Part shown: positions 37,696-51,580 of the stretch, piece after piece
Position numbering within the stretch: position 1 is the stretch's first letter
Layout of the letters: the number at the start of each line of letters is the position of its first letter
DNA from: Victivallales bacterium
GTDB taxonomy: Bacteria > Verrucomicrobiota > Lentisphaeria > Victivallales > UBA1829
DNA: 64,000 nucleotides
Assembly (NCBI GenBank): GCA_016285345.1
Contig: JAEEQN010000002.1
Span: 18,290 to 82,289 of the forward strand
Direction of reading: 5' to 3'
Translations under genes and position numbers: made by a program
The notes under the pieces: model-generated
Seen by the model: the letters and a program-made list of their open reading frames with translations, nothing else
Told to the model about the DNA's origin: nothing
The model's database searches: none

Positions 37696-37751
37696 AAAAA
37701 GTGGTGCACCCGGCGGGGCTCGAACCCACCACCTACTGCTCCGGAGGCAGT
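37696..37751 (-). repeat. att direct repeat, left copy: 3'-terminal 50 nt of tRNA-Arg plus 6 nt of flank
   Basis: 56/56 nt identical to 51498-51553 (aaaaagtggtgcacccggcggggctcgaacccaccacctactgctccggaggcagt). Confidence 0.9.
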
Positions 37752-38022: not shown

Positions 38023-39357
38023 ATGGTAAGACAACGGCGGCAGGGCGGAGCATGGTACTATCAGTTTATCCGAGGCGGCAAAGCATACCGTGGGTGTTGC
38101 GAGGGCGCGACAACTAAACGCGAAGCGGAAAGCTACGAAAGGGAAATCATCGCGACGGTGGAGAGCGCAGCCAAGCAGAAAACGGTAAAGGCGCTACTCG
38201 ACAATTTCAGAGAAGAATTGACCGGGGGCGAGAAGATCACCCTTAATGAAGCATTTGAACTGGCCGAACAGAAACCTCGTTCTCGGATTCCCGCCGAGAA
38301 GTATGCTGCAACGAAACGGGCCGTGTGGAACGATTTTCTGGCGTTCATGCGAGGCGAGCACCCGGATATCGAAAATCTGATCGACGTAACGGGAGCGCAT
38401 GCACAGGAGTACATCGCTCTCCTTCAGAAGTCAGGGCGGTATCAAAAGACCGTCAGCTATAGTCGTGGGGCGGGCCGGGGAGCAAGAACCATCATCACGC
38501 AGGCCGCTGATGGTGCATTGTCGGCGAGGACCGTCCGGCTTCATCAAACTGTATGTGCCGAGGTGTTCACGCTGCTTGCGAAGGACGCCGGATTGCAGGA
38601 AAATCCCTTTTCCGGGATCCGAATGATGAAGTCGGACACAGAGACGCGCGAAGCTTTCACTCCAGACGAACTCAAGACCATCTACGACAACCTCGACGAC
38701 TTCACTCGCCCGCTGTTCATGATGGCAGTATGGACGGGTTTTCGTGAGGGCGACATCTGCACGCTCAAATGGAGCGAAGTTGACCTCGTTCGTCGTTTGA
38801 TTACGCGGAGGACGCGCAAAACCAAAGTCGAGGTGCAGATCCCCATATCGAACCAGCTCTACGGGCTGTTGACCGCTACACCACGAACAGAATCCGAGTT
38901 TGTTTTTCCGAAACACGCCGAAATGTATCTGTCGAACCCAGACGGGGTCTCCTACAGAGTGAAGAGGTTTCTTGAGGGGCTGGGGATCGAGACAACTCGA
39001 ATTCCGGAAGGTCGGACGCGGGCAATCAGTGTGAAGGACCTCCACTCATGCCGCCACACATTCTGTTACTACGCCGGACTTGCGGGGATTCCTCTCGCGG
39101 TCGTTCAATCCATCGTCGGGCACATGAGCCCGGAGATGACGAAGCACTACTCGGCCCACGCTTCCATCGAGGACAAGCGGCGCGGCATGGAGCGTCTTTC
39201 ATTCTTCACGCAGGATGCGCTTCCAGAAGCGAAAGCAGACGAACCGGAACGGATAGAACTCCGGCAGCGGATCGAGACTCTGCCGATAGATACAGTCCGC
39301 GCTGTGCTCCAGTTTTTAAATGCACAGGGAATGACTGTTCAGATGGAGTTATTCTAA
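38023..39357 (+). CDS. Tyrosine recombinase / phage-type integrase
   Basis: The C-terminal catalytic region has WTGFREGDICTLKW (Arg I), HSCRHTF (HxxR), VGHMS and TKHY (Tyr nucleophile). The N-terminal SAM-like domain is typical of tRNA-targeting integrases. Confidence 0.9.
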   Translation: MVRQRRQGGAWYYQFIRGGKAYRGCCEGATTKREAESYEREIIATVESAAKQKTVKALLDNFREELTGGEKITLNEAFELAEQKPRSRIPAEKYAATKRAVWNDFLAFMRGEHPDIENLIDVTGAHAQEYIALLQKSGRYQKTVSYSRGAGRGARTIITQAADGALSARTVRLHQTVCAEVFTLLAKDAGLQENPFSGIRMMKSDTETREAFTPDELKTIYDNLDDFTRPLFMMAVWTGFREGDICTLKWSEVDLVRRLITRRTRKTKVEVQIPISNQLYGLLTATPRTESEFVFPKHAEMYLSNPDGVSYRVKRFLEGLGIETTRIPEGRTRAISVKDLHSCRHTFCYYAGLAGIPLAVVQSIVGHMSPEMTKHYSAHASIEDKRRGMERLSFFTQDALPEAKADEPERIELRQRIETLPIDTVRAVLQFLNAQGMTVQMELF

Positions 39358-47154: not shown

Positions 47155-47883
47155 ATGGGACTGATTATGCAGGAAGGCAAATACGTCAGCCGTGATGAAG
47201 TCGCGTGTATCGACACCCCAAGTTCGACTGAAACATGGAGACCTGTGCCGCACATTGATGTCATCGAGGCCGTAACCGAAGTTGTCAAGGCTCACCGCTG
47301 GGATATTGCGGACGAACGGTTCGGCCTCGCCAGCGAAGGACAGAAGATGTTCGGCGTCATGGAAATCTCCCGTTCATCTTCGCCTCAATGGCATCGCTGT
47401 ATCGGCATCCGCAACAGCCACGACAAAACCCTTGCCGTTGGACTGTCTGCCGGAATCGTCGTTCTTGTCTGCTCCAACCTCGCTTTCGGCGGAACCACCG
47501 TCATCAAGCGCAAGCACACCAGCCGGTTTGAACTGACCGATCTGATCGACCGTGCCGTGGCATCGCTGGAGGACGACTTCCTGATGACCGAAACCGTGTG
47601 CGAGGACCTGAAGGACATCCACCTCAAAAACGATGACGAAGCCCGGAGTAGCATTGTGCGTGCTGCCGAGCTCGGCGTCATCAATTCCTGTGACATTCTT
47701 CCGGTCTACCGTGAATTCAAGTCCCCGTCACATGCCGAGTTCAAGGAGCCAACACGATGGAGCCTGTTGAATGCATTTACGGAAACCGTGAAGAAGTACA
47801 CGCCTCAGCGTGTGGACCACAGCTATCTCGCCCTGAACCGGGCGTTCGGGCTGGACGGTCGCCCTGCCGCCATCTTCACCTGA
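47155..47883 (+). CDS. DUF932-family protein (phage/plasmid-associated)
   Basis: IGIRNSHDKTLAVGLSAGIVVLVCSNLAF and the overall length resemble DUF932/TIGR03299 proteins. Start at ATG 47155, just after the upstream TAA. Confidence 0.6.
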   Translation: MGLIMQEGKYVSRDEVACIDTPSSTETWRPVPHIDVIEAVTEVVKAHRWDIADERFGLASEGQKMFGVMEISRSSSPQWHRCIGIRNSHDKTLAVGLSAGIVVLVCSNLAFGGTTVIKRKHTSRFELTDLIDRAVASLEDDFLMTETVCEDLKDIHLKNDDEARSSIVRAAELGVINSCDILPVYREFKSPSHAEFKEPTRWSLLNAFTETVKKYTPQRVDHSYLALNRAFGLDGRPAAIFT

Positions 47884-47910
47884 CGGCGAGAACGAGCAAC
47901 CCGGCATGGT

Positions 47911-47951
47911 CGGAGGTCGAAGGAGTGCAAGCCTTCCCTCCGGTTTTTTTT
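47911..47951 (+). terminator. Strong rho-independent terminator ending the clamp/nuclease/DUF932 operon
   Basis: CGGAGG+GAAGG (47911-47923) pair with CCTTC+CCTCCG (47932-47942), followed by eight T. Confidence 0.75.
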
Positions 47952-48014
47952 ATATTGAGGTTGCGCGAGCTGTCAAATCGACAAAAAAAGTTTCAGAAAA
48001 AATCGTTGTTTCGC

Positions 48015-48043
48015 TTGATTTCTCCTGTCGACGATGTTAAATT
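48015..48043 (+). promoter_or_regulatory. Candidate sigma70 promoter with an extended -10
   Basis: TTGATT (48015-48020), 17 nt spacer, TGtTAAATT (48035-48043). It lies between a terminator and a 0.7 kb non-coding stretch. Confidence 0.5.
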
Positions 48044-48049
48044 ATTTCT

Positions 48050-48760
48050 CGGCTGAAACAAGAGCGGCATCCCCGTTACCACCAACATCGGGGCGAAGCG
48101 CTCCAGACAGCCACCACACATCGTGATCTAACGGCGGACACCAGACTGAACCAAGGGTCGGACGCACCGAACCTCCAGCAGTGATCGGGCGGGAACATCC
48201 TCTCAGCCGGGCAAACAGAACGCTTGGATCGCGGTCACAGACTACAGCACATAGGTGAACGTTCAGCGCCTGCACTCGCAGCCCAAGAACGTCAGCTGTT
48301 CCCCAGAAGGCATCGGACCAAACCTATACGGTCGGCGATGCGAACAGCGCATAGGCGATGTCAAAACCGGCCAAAGCGGTCAAGACATCGGGCTGTCCCC
48401 AGATAGCATCGGGCCACCTATTCGGCCGAAATGCTATACCTCCCCAACACGACGTACCAATGACCGCCACTGCGGCGAGTCAGCGGGCGCGTACTGTTGT
48501 CCACGGCAGCAAACGACCCCAAAGGCCGGATGCCAACCGTCCAGAGCGAAGCATTGGACCACCAATGGTCTCAGATGCTTGGGAACAGCAGGGCCCGGAA
48601 ACATCCCGGAGCGAACTCAGGCCAGAAGCCTGAGCAAGGTTCGGAGTGCAACCGGGGCAACAACGGGCACAGGCCGAAAGGTCTGGGCAAAGCACTCGGT
48701 GAAGACCTCGCAGAAGCGGAATCGGCATCGGGAACAAACCTATGAAACAGGAGTCTTACA
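48050..48760 (+). ncRNA. Candidate large structured non-coding RNA / long 5' leader of the Xis-like gene
   Basis: About 710 nt with no plausible ORF. The + strand is T-poor. Local hairpins are dense: CATTGG-ACCA-CCAATG at 48552-48567, CTCAGGC-CAGAA-GCCTGAG at 48616-48634, AGGCC-GAAA-GGTCT at 48671-48684. A duplicated hairpin module lies at 48310-48341 and 48405-48435. Confidence 0.3.
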
Positions 48761-49105
48761 ATGAGCAACATGCTCGAACATACGCCCCAAAACGGGGAGA
48801 CAACGGACGGCCTCAAATCGGTCGTTCCGCAGAACGTACTGGATATCATCCGGTGCGCCATCTCGCCGTACCCCGTCCCTTGGAGCAGAATCCGTAATGC
48901 TATCTTATCAGAAGAGGACGGCAATTCAAAGTCTATTCTGCCAGATGATCTCATGGACACCGCAGAGGCCATTAAGGCTCTGAAAATCTCGCGTGTCACA
49001 CTTCATCGTCGTGTGCGGGAAGGAACCATCCCCGTACACAAATTAGGACGCAGAAATCTCTATTCTCTGAAGGAGATAAGGGAAGTCCTGCAGGTGGAGA
49101 ACTAA
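48761..49105 (+). CDS. Excisionase/AlpA-family helix-turn-helix DNA-binding protein
   Basis: LMDTAEAIKALKISRVTLHRRVREGTIPVHKLGRRNLYSLKEIREVL matches the excisionase-family HTH pattern. AGGAG RBS at 48750-48754. Confidence 0.7.
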   Translation: MSNMLEHTPQNGETTDGLKSVVPQNVLDIIRCAISPYPVPWSRIRNAILSEEDGNSKSILPDDLMDTAEAIKALKISRVTLHRRVREGTIPVHKLGRRNLYSLKEIREVLQVEN

Positions 49106-49407
49106 CGACCATCATAGATCATCCCACAAGACCACGACAGGTCCCGCGATCTCGTGACAAATCGCTGGTAGGCAGCAAACCATGGTAGGCTCCTTCACTC
49201 CTGGCGAGCTGTCTCCGGTGAGCGTCCGGCTCTGCTAACTGAAAGCCCATTGCCGCTACATCGGCTCACACAGGCGAACAGCCCAGCGAACCCGACGATG
49301 CGTCACAACAAGGTCTCGACTTATGATCTACACGGCAGCCACCCCAACTGTCTCTGTGAGAATCGTTCCTGTCTGGCAAAGGACAACGAACACCGTCTGA
49401 AAATAAC

Positions 49408-51029
49408 ATGCAAAACAAAACAACCAATATCCATGCGCCGAGGGACAACTCCCACGGTGCGAACACCCCTGGCTCAGACCAGTCTTCGGACACCGAGAAT
49501 CGTACCAAGCTCTCGCGAGAAGTCCAGACCGACCGGATCAAGCAATTTCCCGAAGAATCGGGAATTGATACGGAACGGTGTAACAATCGCGTTGAGAATG
49601 ACACGACCGCTTCGGCGTACGACTGGCTGCCCAAGCCGATCAAATACAACTCCAAAACGCGCGAGGACCAGACCGACAGGTGTATTCTCCGCAATGGGAA
49701 ACAGGGAAGTGCGCCTGAAACACTGCCGAAGAAAGAGAGCGTGAAAACGGCAGCCAAGCACAACCCGCAAATCGGACAGCAGAATACCAGACAGACTGAC
49801 TCCTTCTGGACCGGTGGTTCTGAACGCTCCGGCAGTTCATCAAAGCAGAAACACAAACAGCGGTACTATGATCCGCTAATCGGAAATCATGTCATCCCGA
49901 TCATCTGGAATCATGACCTCCTGGAACGAATCGCGGACAGGGACAATCTCCTACAAGCAATCGCCTTCTTAGCCCGTCACAAGGAGAAAACTCCTGGTCC
50001 GGACCACAAGAGCGTGGAGGAGACCTGCATCATGCTTTCCGATCCGGAGAACCTGGAACGCCTTCGGCAACAGCTTCTTCAGGAAACATACCGACCCGGT
50101 AATGTCCAATCAACACAAATCCCCAAATCCAACGGAAAGACGCGGCCCTTAAAGATCGCGACTGTGATGGATCGCTGCGTACAGCGTGCAATCCTACAGC
50201 AGGTAATCACGAACCTACCGAAGAATCCGTGGTGCCCCTACTCCTTTGCATACCACCACGGGCAAAACACGACCGACGCAATCGAAGAAGTCAACAGGAT
50301 CCGGGAAGAGGGATACAAGTACGCTATCGAACTGGACCTCGAGTCCTTCTTCGACAATGTACGGCATACCAGACTCCTGAAGAAACTCCGTAGACATATC
50401 GCCGATAAGAGGGTAGTCCGAATGATCTCTCACATCATATCGGCCCTTATCATCAATAATCACGGGGAGCTGACGAAAAACCGCAAAGGCACACCGCAAG
50501 GCTTCGCGATTTCCTCATGGCTCGCAGCAGACCTATACCTGGATGAAATGGATCAGGAAATGACACGGCGCAACCTGCGCTTCGTCCGTTTCGCTGACGA
50601 CATTACTATATTCACCCGCTCGAAGAAGTCGGCCAAGCGTGTCAAGGCCAGAATCATCGAGTTCACTGAAAACGTAATGGAATGTCCGGTCAACAAGAAG
50701 AAAACCAGAATCGTCACCATTGAGAACGTCTCCCCTCCCTCTTGGGAGTCGAACTCAGGGATGGCCACTGGAGAATCCTTCGCGAAAAGGTCCGCAACCA
50801 CTGCGGCGAATACATGAAGGACATAGCCAAGTATAAGAAAACGAAGAATGACTACTACATCCGCAAGGCAGCCCAGAGCATGCAGGGATTCATCGGCGGT
50901 TACACCAGGATTCCTGACATCTGCCTGAGACAAATTCGGGCACTGAGATGCTGGTGCATGAACAGGTGGTGGGCCACGGGTGAACGCAAGCTGTTCTTCG
51001 CCCAGAAACGCTGGATGGTGCCAGACTAA
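49408..51029 (+). pseudogene. Group-II-intron-type reverse transcriptase (RT plus thumb/X, no endonuclease domain), interrupted by a frameshift near 50735
   Basis: RT0 LLERIADRDNLLQA; RT2 IPKSNGKTRPLKIATVMDRCVQRA; RT4 LDLESFFDNVRH; RT5 GTPQGFAISSWLAADLYL; FADD; KTRIV. The thumb continues in the -1 frame (50742-51029: LGVELRDGHWRI...MQGFIGGY). The first roughly 165 codons are low-complexity and probably not genuine protein. Confidence 0.75.
49457..51029 (+). mobile_element. Group II intron-like retroelement remnant: 5' GUGCG, domain-I-like RNA and an intron-encoded RT; no domain V/VI recognised
   Basis: GTGCG at 49457-49461. GATACGGAAC (49567), GCGTTGAG (49589) and GTACGACTG (49617) occur in the same order and roughly the same spacing as GAUACGGGAAC/GCGAUGAG/GUACGACUG in Ll.LtrB domain I, as I recall that sequence. 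Confidence 0.4.
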
Positions 51030-51091
51030 CCACGGGACGCAAACGCTACTCTGCAAAGATGAACTGAATTACCGCTCTATTAACTGAGCCT

Positions 51092-51135
51092 GAGCAGCGC
51101 TTCAGGTGTGAATGACCTGGAGTGCTGCTCTTTTT
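51092..51135 (+). terminator. Strong rho-independent terminator after the RT
   Basis: GAGCAGCGCTTCAGG (51092-51106) pairs over 15 bp (two G-U) with CCTGGAGTGCTGCTC (51116-51130), followed by TTTTT. Confidence 0.75.
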
Positions 51136-51219
51136 GATTTCGCTGACGGCACTCGTCTTTGGCTTCCGAAGAACAATTAACCTCAACCCAAGCAACCGAA
51201 ATGCCGTTTTTAACCTCAG

Positions 51220-51243
51220 ATCGTGGCAAAATCGTGGAAAAGG
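51220..51243 (-). repeat. Inverted copies of the arm-type motif (ATCGTGGCAAAATCGTGGAAAAGG)
   Basis: The reverse complement reads CCTTTTCCACGATTTTGCCACGAT, related to the direct copies at 51405-51444 and 37792-37813. Confidence 0.5.
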
Positions 51244-51404
51244 TCCCCATTTCCACAATTGTCGTGGCGAATGATCGCTGCTGTTTTCAGCACGATGGGA
51301 CGTACCAGACAGGAACCGGAGGCATATCGCGGAAGGCTCGGTTTTCCACGGACATACATGAATGCTTGAGCAGGAAGGGCGAAAAATCTGAGCTCAAAAG
51401 CCTG

Positions 51405-51497: not shown

Positions 51498-51553
51498 AAA
51501 AAGTGGTGCACCCGGCGGGGCTCGAACCCACCACCTACTGCTCCGGAGGCAGT
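51498..51553 (-). repeat. att direct repeat, right copy (inside the intact tRNA-Arg)
   Basis: Identical to 37696-37751. Confidence 0.9.
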
Positions 51554-51580
51554 CGCTCTATCCAAATGAGCTACGGGTGC
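51504..51580 (-). tRNA. tRNA-Arg (anticodon CCG)
   Basis: The reverse complement folds as a 77-nt cloverleaf: GCACCCG/TA/GCTC-ATTTGGATA-GAGC/G/ACTGC-CTCCGGA-GCAGT/AGGTG/GTGGG-TTCGAGC-CCCGC/CGGGTGC/A/CCA. Anticodon loop C-U-CCG-G-A. CCA is encoded. Confidence 0.9.

Follow-up and report, generated by a model that had tools for sequence, protein, structure and literature searches.

What is the role of a hairpin-dense segment of some 710 nucleotides (nt) that holds no credible gene and sits between two operons in the 64,000-nt stretch of Victivallales bacterium DNA analysed here (contig JAEEQN010000002.1; hereafter the window)? An earlier note, made from the letters of the sequence, read positions 48050-48760 either as a large structured RNA or as an array of protein-binding sites controlling the translation of an excisionase gene, xis. 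We find that positions 48047-48760 are the untranslated 5' leader of an operon formed by a helix-turn-helix (HTH) gene of the HTH_17 family and a reverse transcriptase (RT) gene, and that this leader is real, conserved, non-coding and heavily folded. It is about 710 nt long, has a GC content of 60% without an AT-rich unwinding region, and is composed of hairpin A, module B (112 nt), a tandem pair of ~95-nt units with two hairpins each, and a 3' domain of four hairpins (Table 1). Our leading interpretation, held tentatively and at somewhat less than an even chance, is that the leader would act as a cis-acting 5' untranslated control region of the early HTH_17-RT operon of the mobile element that carries it.

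A conserved, non-coding leader folded on the plus strand

Throughout, the window's stretch is compared with the leaders of related loci, which carry L-number labels. The leader is known from about a dozen metagenome contigs. Four of these leaders are near-identical (L182-L185; L182 and L183 share ~90% identity with the window leader), three are divergent (L002, L005, and L006 with its variants), and in L010 and L003 all that is kept is the final ~240 nt, which is the 3' domain.

A protein-coding reading was rejected, in agreement with the earlier note, which saw no coding frame here. The 169-aa open reading frame (ORF) at 48255-48764 has no Pfam match, 1-nt and 2-nt indels in close relatives disrupt its frame, and substitutions in the leader are spread evenly over the codon positions (13/17/13 against L182 and 11/10/9 against L183), that is, without codon periodicity. 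In the HTH coding sequence (CDS) the corresponding counts are 12/6/24 and 10/9/35, the third-position bias of a coding gene. The earlier note had made its case depend on conservation in related islands, and the leader is indeed conserved there, more strongly than the gene that follows it: relative to L182 and L183, 6.7-8.3% of positions are substituted in the leader and 12-16% in the HTH CDS. Because it accumulates fewer substitutions than the HTH CDS, the leader is under purifying selection as a nucleotide sequence. The scarcity of T that the note had stressed is real (13%, against a window mean of 21% with a standard deviation of 4.7%), but other parts of the window match it and the leaders of L002 (21% T) and L005 (20% T) do not share it; T-poverty was dropped as a defining trait.

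On the plus strand, the window leader folds better than dinucleotide shuffles (z = -3.5 and -4.3 in separate runs), so its structure exceeds chance; on the minus strand z is about -1. Plus-strand values are -4.7 in L005, -2.8 in L002 and -2.1 in L006, with the minus strand weaker in the window and in L005. The HTH CDS (48761-49105) itself has a plus-strand z of -3.4, unlike a DUF932 control (-1.2); structure may extend into the gene.

Covariation was tested for the 3'-domain helices H_bc, H_e and H_f on a plain MAFFT alignment of eight sequences that was not fitted to the structure. Standard pairs fill 88% of the cells, and double-sided changes occur at 10 of the 34 pairs. In 500 column shuffles, neither the paired fraction nor the covariation score ever came up to the observed value, and controls in which the 3' partners were slid by 1-3 columns pair at 24-45%, with at most three double-sided pairs. 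In the three closely related full-length sequences 35 pairs vary; 17 of them stay canonical, four of these 17 through double-sided changes, which is supportive though not strong alone. Many pairs are G-U on the plus strand and would be C-A mismatches on the other strand, which assigns the structure to plus-strand RNA. Together with the conservation in related islands, the absence of coding and the upstream promoter described below, the covarying helices uphold the first of the note's two proposals, a large structured RNA.

These data also bear on the idea that the segment is a chance, hairpin-rich spacer or decayed coding region without function. A T-poor sequence opens frames by chance, and the low folding z of the HTH CDS fits this idea as well. 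The leader, however, is more conserved than the HTH gene, its covariation exceeds both the shuffled and the slid controls, the same architecture recurs in lineages whose primary sequence cannot be aligned, and neither protein homology nor a codon signal is present. We find this explanation hardly credible.

A predicted promoter of fixed position and an unpaired ribosome-binding site

The DUF932 gene upstream ends at 47883 and is followed by a terminator-like hairpin with a U8 run, which is also kept, with its T-run, in L002, L005 and L182. A sigma-70-type promoter comes next in the window, and at the equivalent position L005 carries TTGACA-17-TACATT, L002 TTGACA-N-TATATT and L182 TTGACT-17-TAAATT. 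In these three relatives both terminator and promoter are kept although the DNA downstream has strongly diverged. A scan with a stricter promoter consensus did not list the 48015-48043 promoter. Because a terminator and a promoter of fixed position precede it, we predict that the transcript starts at about 48047-48052, where the region of the earlier note begins. A terminator scan found no plus-strand terminator-like site within 48050-48760. As read from the sequence, the segment has the general properties of a structured cis-acting 5' leader: it is placed between a promoter and an operon's first ribosome-binding site (RBS), is non-coding, and has covarying structure.

Some of the same observations argue against an element that works at the level of DNA, such as a replication or transfer origin, a single-strand initiation site or an array of sites for the HTH protein. 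The setting would suit it: the segment is repeat- and hairpin-rich non-coding DNA beside replication-type genes (clamp-like, PD-(D/E)XK and DUF932), and hairpins of single-stranded DNA would be strand-specific too. Yet no AT-rich unwinding region is found in its 60% GC, the element lacks a relaxase, a conserved promoter is directed into the segment, which then runs uninterrupted to the RBS, and modules come and go while the flanking genes stay. Moreover, it is the helices that are conserved, with changing letters, and not duplex motifs. Since compensatory and G-U changes make sense only in a single plus strand, the array of protein-binding DNA sites proposed as the note's second option is disfavoured, and we consider any DNA-level role very unlikely.

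The proposed control of translation by masking of the RBS fares no better. The RBS is unpaired in the folds of all lineages, and no anti-Shine-Dalgarno sequence is conserved. Occlusion by such a sequence was rejected: the best upstream complements are no better than those of shuffles, and only L005 has a notable match, of 9 nt.

Architecture of the leader

Table 1. Features of the leader and its operon, in order along the window.
Feature	Position	Strand	Description
Terminator-like hairpin and U-run closing the DUF932 operon	47910-47951	+	CGGAGGU..GAAGG..CCUUCCCUCCGG then U8; -16.8 kcal/mol
Predicted sigma-70-type promoter	48015-48043	+	TTGATT, 17-nt spacer, TAAATT, preceded by TGn; read from sequence
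Hairpin A	48062-48103	+	outer helix GAGCG/CGCUC, inner helix CCCCG/CGGGG; z = -2.1
Single-stranded C/A-rich linker	48104-48121	+	CAGACAGCCACCACACAU; kept in window, L182, L183, L005, partly L002
Module B	48122-48233	+	112-nt long hairpin, from fold
Unit 1	48248-48343	+	CAUAGG 48250-48255; P hairpin 48256-48294; linker GCUGUUCCCCAGAAG 48295-48309; C hairpin 48310-48341, loop AAACCUAUAC
Unit 2, tandem paralogue	48348-48437	+	CAUAGG 48350-48355; P hairpin 48356-48390; linker; C hairpin 48403-48437, loop ACCUAUUC
Middle segment	48438-48548	+	C/A-rich linker and hairpin ~48451-48494; RNAalifold; least defined part
H_a	48549-48580	+	AAGCAUU-GGACCA..UGGUCU-GAUGCUU; z = -3.7
Conserved single-stranded motif	48581-48591	+	GGGAACAGCAG
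H_bc, three-tiered	48594-48656	+	CCCGG/CCGGG, CAU/GUG, CCGGA/UUCGG, apical CUCAGGC/GCCUGAG; z = -5.1
H_e	48667-48688	+	GAAA tetraloop hairpin; z = -3.5
H_f, three-tiered	48695-48732	+	3' arm is the earlier note's "third copy", GCAUCGGG
A-rich spacer, Shine-Dalgarno and HTH start	48733-48763	+	AGGAG 48749-48753, ATG 48761; unpaired in individual folds, all lineages
HTH_17 gene	48761-49105	+	114 aa, first gene of operon; Pfam PF12728, E = 2.7e-9
Group II intron-like RT gene	49408-51029	+	frameshifted near 50740; RVT_1 1e-34

The two related stem-loops described in the earlier note are both present, each preceded by TCCCCAGA, but they are only the second hairpin, C, of a ~95-nt duplicated unit (GCATCG-GACC-AAACCTATAC-GGTC-GG-CGATGC in unit 1 and ATAGCAT-CG-GGCC-ACCTATTC-GGCC-GAA-ATGCTAT in unit 2). 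In each unit, CAUAGG is followed by a P hairpin of two tiers, then by the linker GCUGUYCCCCAGAWRG and by the C hairpin, whose loop is (A)CCUAU. The paired change that the note saw in the inner helix of the C hairpin, from GACC:GGTC in unit 1 to GGCC:GGCC in unit 2, is real and has further variants, GGCU:AGCC in L006 and GGC:GCC in L002. The P helix is spelled in entirely different letters in unit 1 (UGA[A]CGUUC/GAACGUCA) and unit 2 (CGAUGUC/GACAUCG), and at the same position L005 has yet other, unrelated letters (GUGAUAUCU/AGAUAUCAC). In L006 (UGA[A]CGUCCC/GGGACGUCA) a U-A pair has become C-G with the same bulged A as in unit 1, the L002 helix (GAUGC/GCAUC) can be read as that of unit 2 with a paired deletion, and in unit 2 of L182 the apical ACCG/CGGU has become ACCA/UGGU. 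A covariance model, R2, built from unit-1-type sequences with unit 2 left out, recovered unit 2 with E = 3.8e-6, matched the L002 unit weakly (E = 0.28) and returned nothing else significant from the 14 sources searched (136 kb). L006 holds one whole unit in a near-identical 175-nt duplication (1-105 and 176-280). An extension of the P helix by AUAG/CUGU was discarded, as it is not conserved in L002, L005 or L006.

The CAUAGG on the 5' side of each P hairpin is complementary to the loop of the C hairpin in the same unit. Read from alignments that shift in this region, the complementarity persists in changing letters: unit 1 has AUAGGU/ACCUAU, L002 AUAGG(A or G)/UCCUAU and L005 UGUA-GGG/CCC[A]UACA, and in L006 it is reduced to AAGG/CCUU, 4 bp. 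This pattern is suggestive of an H-type pseudoknot within each unit, or of contacts between units. A long-range closure predicted by RNAalifold, CAUAGGU (48250) with ACCUAUG (48737) plus AGACU/AGUCU, was rejected because it is not conserved outside the window lineage.

The same complementarity would serve a different function if the leader were processed into stable small RNAs of the immunity-type antisense kind, like P4 CI/seqABC or P1 c4, in which the C-hairpin loops (CCUAU) would interact with the CAUAGG motifs, in trans or in the same transcript. Each unit carries both partners, their match is kept in different letters in L002 and L005, and in the window lineage an extra ACCUAUG lies 6 nt before the Shine-Dalgarno sequence, the copy that RNAalifold pairs with CAUAGGU at 48250; in addition, the HTH gene of distant relatives precedes a P4-alpha-type primase operon. 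An intramolecular pseudoknot explains the complementarity equally well, however, the match shrinks to 4 bp in L006, and no processing sites are apparent. The CCUAU loops and CAUAGG co-vary in L002 and L005, as C4-like target sites might, but the RBS-adjacent copy is confined to the window lineage (absent from L002, L005, L006 and L010). The C4 model (RF01695) matches neither the window at E up to 10 nor the homologues at E up to 5, and no CI family of Rfam matches either. We judge processing into such antisense RNAs unlikely.

The units also have the size and style of aptamers, and might form a tandem riboswitch-like leader in which they sense a ligand or protein and report the state of the host. 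Two hairpins of a ~95-nt unit meet at the junction GCUGUYCCCCAGAWRGCAYCGG, with a conserved loop and a possible pseudoknot; the units are in tandem, as in some riboswitches; and the helices vary while the letters of junction and loop are fixed. An expression platform is missing, since there is no plus-strand terminator in 48050-48760 and no conserved helix that sequesters the RBS. Furthermore, L010 and L003 lack the units though they keep the 3' domain, no Rfam riboswitch matches, and the sequences are too few to define a binding pocket. A sensing role strikes us as quite improbable, and cis-acting control of the operon by the leader as a whole remains the reading that we prefer.

Upstream of the units, hairpin A and module B vary in letters in a similar manner. 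The inner helix of hairpin A is spelled CACCCA/UGGGUG in L182, and in L183 a G-C pair of the outer helix has become G-U. The closing stem of module B, CGUGAUCUAA/UUGGAUCGCG in the window, covaries (GUUUGCCAA/UUGGCAAAC in L002, GGUUUCACA/UGUGAAAUC in L005), and its apex, CGC[A]CCGA..UCGGGCG, carries the conserved loop AACCUCCAG. In L005 (186-550), module B occurs as three tandem copies of ~122 nt. The linker between hairpin A and module B (48104-48121) could conceivably be a site of Rho loading. A separate observation concerns the module B loop AACCUCC (48160-48192), which resembles the anti-Shine-Dalgarno end of 16S rRNA and is kept in the window, L182, L183, L006 and L005 (three copies, one of them variant), and not in L002. 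In the middle segment, which aligns poorly with L002 and L005, the hairpin shows two double-sided changes among close relatives (A-U to G-C and C-G to U-A).

A four-hairpin 3' domain common to almost all leaders

The 3' domain (48549-48732) strings the hairpins H_a, H_bc, H_e and H_f along conserved A-rich linkers. Folded separately, the window, L183, L002 and L010 yield the same four-hairpin domain, L005 yields most of the hairpins, and L006 keeps only the last two. The position of H_a holds a hairpin in other letters in L002 (GGCA..GGGC/GCCC..UGCC) and L010 (GGCGAA/UUCGCC). After it comes the single-stranded motif GGGAACARCA, which all leaders of the window, L002, L003, L005 and L010 lineages carry and which occurs at no other place in the 1.7 Mb of DNA searched; the motif (48581-48591) is complementary to GCUGUUCCC at 48295-48303, with which it might pair. 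None of 200 shuffles is as stable as H_bc, whose tiers recur with compensatory changes in L002, L010 and L005. The GAAA-tetraloop hairpin pointed out in the note (48670-48685) is contained in H_e. Its helix covaries, and its loop is GNRA-like or A-rich in all lineages (GAAA, CUGAAAAA, CCGAAAA, GCAAA, CCGGAAAA).

The third copy of the module, which the note placed at 48724-48743 on the RBS, shares the sequence of the modules but forms no stem-loop of that kind and ends before the Shine-Dalgarno sequence. Rather, GGCAUCGGG at 48724-48732 makes up the 3' arm of H_f, pairing opposite CUCGGUG at 48695-48701; this arm is kept across lineages and replaces the idea of a third module at the RBS. The outer helix of H_f is CUCGGUG/CAUCGGG in the window, CCUGAUG/CAUCGGG in L002 and L010, and GUGC/GCAC in L005, being shortened in L005 and L006; its apical helix changes from UCGC/GCGG in the window to UCUC/GAGA in L002 and UCCA/UGGA in L006. 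The ACCUAU that comes after the H_f arm, ending 6 nt before the Shine-Dalgarno sequence, occurs in the window lineage only and is absent from L002, L005, L006 and L010. CsrA-type enrichment of GGA was also considered for the ~220-nt 3' domain and set aside as too weak, with seven GGA counted by eye against about four expected by composition.

The island and the HTH gene

The leader and its operon form the right end of a 13.8-kb integrated island. A perfect direct repeat of 56 nt (37696-37751 and 51498-51553), which corresponds to the 3' half of a minus-strand tRNA-Arg(CCG) gene (51504-51580), flanks the island on both sides. A tyrosine integrase gene (38023-39357) lies at the left end, far from the leader. 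It is followed by several genes without an assigned function, then by a replication-type block (a 238-aa gene, a 123-aa gene, a sliding-clamp-like gene, a 158-aa gene, a PD-(D/E)XK nuclease and DUF932), and finally by the leader, HTH_17 and RT. In L002 and L006, too, a tRNA gene lies on the minus strand just past the RT.

Close homologues of the HTH protein number only about ten in a set of 5.8 billion proteins, and HTH and RT genes are adjacent in L002, L004, L005, L006 and L010, the exception among homologues being the distant L009. A profile search added about 190 more distant relatives. In the two that were inspected, the operon starts with the HTH gene and goes on to encode a 385-aa protein, a D5_N/DUF5906 primase-helicase and DNA polymerase A (PolA); this operon is divergent from the same clamp/nuclease/DUF932 block and has a similar promoter and a 230-430-nt leader before the HTH gene. 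The leaders of distant HTH relatives (L201-L209, L131, L009) show no homology to that of the window, by BLAST or with covariance model R1. Because the operons of distant relatives start in this way, we take the HTH gene to be the entry gene of the element's early or replication operon, a position at which a long leader is general. The label xis given to this gene in the note is doubtful: the protein scores 20 bits against an excisionase model with a cut-off of 28.8, and in distant relatives the HTH gene opens the primase/polymerase operon and does not lie beside the integrase.

The distribution of the leader is narrow. Phage and plasmid collections hold no similar DNA. A scan of viral contigs with a short motif returned at least 120 loci, none similar to the leader, HTH or RT; scans of viral contigs with two long motifs returned zero matches, and with an RT alignment only RTs of 24-26% identity. 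Scans of genomes and metagenomes with the RT turned up two genomes that carry an RT of the same clade, one from Victivallaceae and one from the rumen, and in both the leader is absent. Likewise, L131 and L132 have same-clade RTs without this RNA upstream; a paired CATAGGCG repeat in L132 was dismissed, as it lies inside a repeat-protein gene.

The reverse transcriptase and its possible link to the leader

The RT reading frame of the window, 49408-50817, continues in a second frame, 50742-51029, where the homologues (537-559 aa) read through to a thumb-like C-terminus; the frameshift marks either a pseudogene or an assembly error. The protein scores 222 bits with TIGR04416, below the 300-bit cut-off, so it appears group II-like but is probably no bona fide intron maturase, and its nearest solved structure is the GsI-IIC RT (170 bits). 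No group II intron domain (D1-D4 or DV/DVI) was found in the window at gathering thresholds, nor flanking the RT at E up to 10. The retron models, which have cut-offs of 235-600 bits, reach 26-63 bits, and the retron RT models of PADLOC rank far below its generic RT model. That generic model is the best of PADLOC at 198 bits, with Drt9, UG21 and UG17 at 114-121 bits; the NCBIfam Drt2-5 models are far below their cut-offs, and the retron and DRT models of NCBIfam score at most 71 bits. The window RT thus falls in neither the retron nor the DRT/UG clades by these models. The 302-nt spacer between HTH and RT has a folding z of -1.1.

The N-terminal extension of the RT (49408-49920, the first ~170 codons) is basic, of low complexity, and in frame in all six homologues, with the short conserved motifs REVQ, GQQNT and SFW. 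Its substitutions (20/25/20; 62/58/73) show no bias for codon position, the counts in the RT core being 99/69/177, and on either strand it is more stably folded than shuffles (z = -3.6 and -3.1). It includes a small conserved hairpin (49535-49571), with weak CRISPR-DR32 matches in four loci. The extension could be read as a disordered peptide, as an RNA element or as both at once. Separately, the elements are mosaic: the RT core (49940-50740) differs from L002 and L005 by 1 and 9 substitutions in 852 nt, HTH and leader are only 60-79% identical to theirs, and identity climbs stepwise from ~49440. This suggests that the RT segment was recently recombined or spread among related elements.

Free-standing RTs often work with a neighbouring non-coding RNA, as in retrons and DRT systems. 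This raises the possibility that the leader is the RNA partner of the RT (its template, primer or scaffold), with HTH, RT and RNA forming one system. The adjacency of HTH and RT in five relatives (L002, L004, L005, L006 and L010) fits this idea, and the RT is free-standing and group II intron-like without an intron RNA; the RNA is of large size and conserved, under tighter constraint than the HTH gene, and the conserved basic extension of the RT could bind RNA. As in retron msr-msd, DRT2, DRT9 and DRT3, a structured RNA lies just upstream of a free-standing RT in the same orientation, and a position as cargo or defence on a mobile element is possibly a further likeness. Here, however, the HTH gene separates the leader from the RT, which is not the msr-msd arrangement and would be unusual for a retron or DRT system, and the RT scores far better as group II (222 bits with TIGR04416, against at most 121 with Drt9). 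RTs of the same clade do without the leader RNA (L131 and L132), L004 has HTH and RT without any leader, L010 and L003 have only its last ~240 nt, and in the window the RT is frameshifted while the leader is intact. Flanking inverted repeats of the a1/a2 type are absent among the inverted repeats listed, although no search was aimed at them. We regard a partnership of this kind as unlikely on balance.

A bolder version, which we hold to be highly doubtful, would make leader and group II intron-like RT a new RNA-RT module, with the RT in place of PolA plus primase and the leader as template or primer. The replacement part of this idea draws support from gene order, HTH-385aa-primase-PolA in L201-L209 (L201 5001-10366), HTH-primase-RT in L131 (4058-7404) and leader-HTH-RT in the window: as L131 has the RT where the others carry PolA, the RT occupies the polymerase slot. 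If such a module existed, the RT would replicate the element or make a defensive cDNA from the leader transcript.

Relation to known RNA families

The search of Rfam suggested in the earlier note gave no family for the leader. With Rfam 15, the whole window at gathering thresholds yields only tRNA-Arg; at E up to 10, the interval 47800-51300 has only chance-level matches, none of them within 48050-48760; and the leaders of L002, L005, L006, L010 and L182 have no match at E up to 5. The leader is an RNA family absent from Rfam, yet of a known general kind, the structured leader of a mobile-element operon.

The closest parallels in logic come from temperate elements. The immunity leader of P4 (CI RNA with seqA, seqB and seqC) gates the primase operon, and the c4 antisense RNA of P1 (also found in P7) gates the ant operon. 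Like these, the window leader is long and untranslated, belongs to a small temperate element, lies just past the (here predicted) early promoter and carries short complementary sequences of its own on hairpin loops, and, as in P4, the HTH gene and leader of distant relatives precede a primase operon of the D5/P4-alpha type. Unlike them, it is several times longer (710 nt), has no terminator or conserved RBS target, and gives neither a sequence match nor a covariance-model match. In phage lambda and HK022, nut/boxB and put are antitermination RNAs in early leaders. H_e resembles boxB in its conserved GNRA-like or GAAAA-type loop, a likeness limited to one loop type; boxA, an N-like gene and downstream terminators are lacking, and the window leader is much larger and multi-domain.

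Two further comparisons concern large RNAs. A group II intron RT binds DIVa over its own RBS, and the window RT is closest to intron RTs, with an RNA of ~700 nt upstream that is about the size of domains I-III. Unlike an intron, though, the leader starts at a promoter and not at a GUGYG splice site, the HTH gene intervenes, and the 5' modules are dispensable in L010 and L004. With ROOL, GOLLD and HEARO/omega RNA the leader shares a length above 500 nt, multiple hairpins, A-rich linkers, GNRA-type loops and residence on mobile DNA; it matches none of these families, and differs from them in being contiguous with a coding region and not free-standing, in consisting of repeatable modules and not one global fold, and in having been seen in only about a dozen contigs.

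A proposed control region of an early operon

How might the leader act? Since the RBS is free and no U-tract terminator is present, control would most likely be exerted at transcript completion, processing or stability; a role of the RNA as such is a further option. Acting in cis, the leader would influence elongation, processing or stability of its own transcript. It is built from semi-independent hairpin modules, their copy number shifting between relatives and the 3' domain being found in almost all. Its structure, or a factor bound to it, might block the loading of Rho on the C/A-rich linkers. The logic would be like that of the leaders of the P4 primase operon or the P1 ant operon, without homology to either.

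Several points weigh against this reading. Neither a terminator nor an antiterminator pair nor an RBS-sequestering helix is conserved, so no concrete switch can be named, and Rho enters the scheme purely by way of base composition. We infer both the start site and the continuity of the leader with the HTH mRNA. The leader is dispensable for HTH-RT in at least one context, as L004 shows. Folding z-scores alone discriminate poorly, given that the value of the HTH CDS is also low. The helices tested for covariation were first read from the window sequence itself, and with only four or five independent lineages, all from metagenome contigs, the covariation statistics are weak by R-scape standards.

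The family is rare, at about a dozen contigs, and its regulatory role would follow from inference only. If confirmed, the structure would represent an uncatalogued RNA of ~700 nt with repeatable pseudoknot-like units and a conserved four-hairpin core; to our knowledge, few bacterial leaders of such length have conserved structure. Its natural variants, with three copies of module B in L005, the 3' domain only in L010 and no leader in L004, can be compared directly, and a link between the leader and the neighbouring free-standing RT would be of wide interest. The leader would sit at the control point of a mobile element in the poorly studied Victivallales-type gut bacteria.

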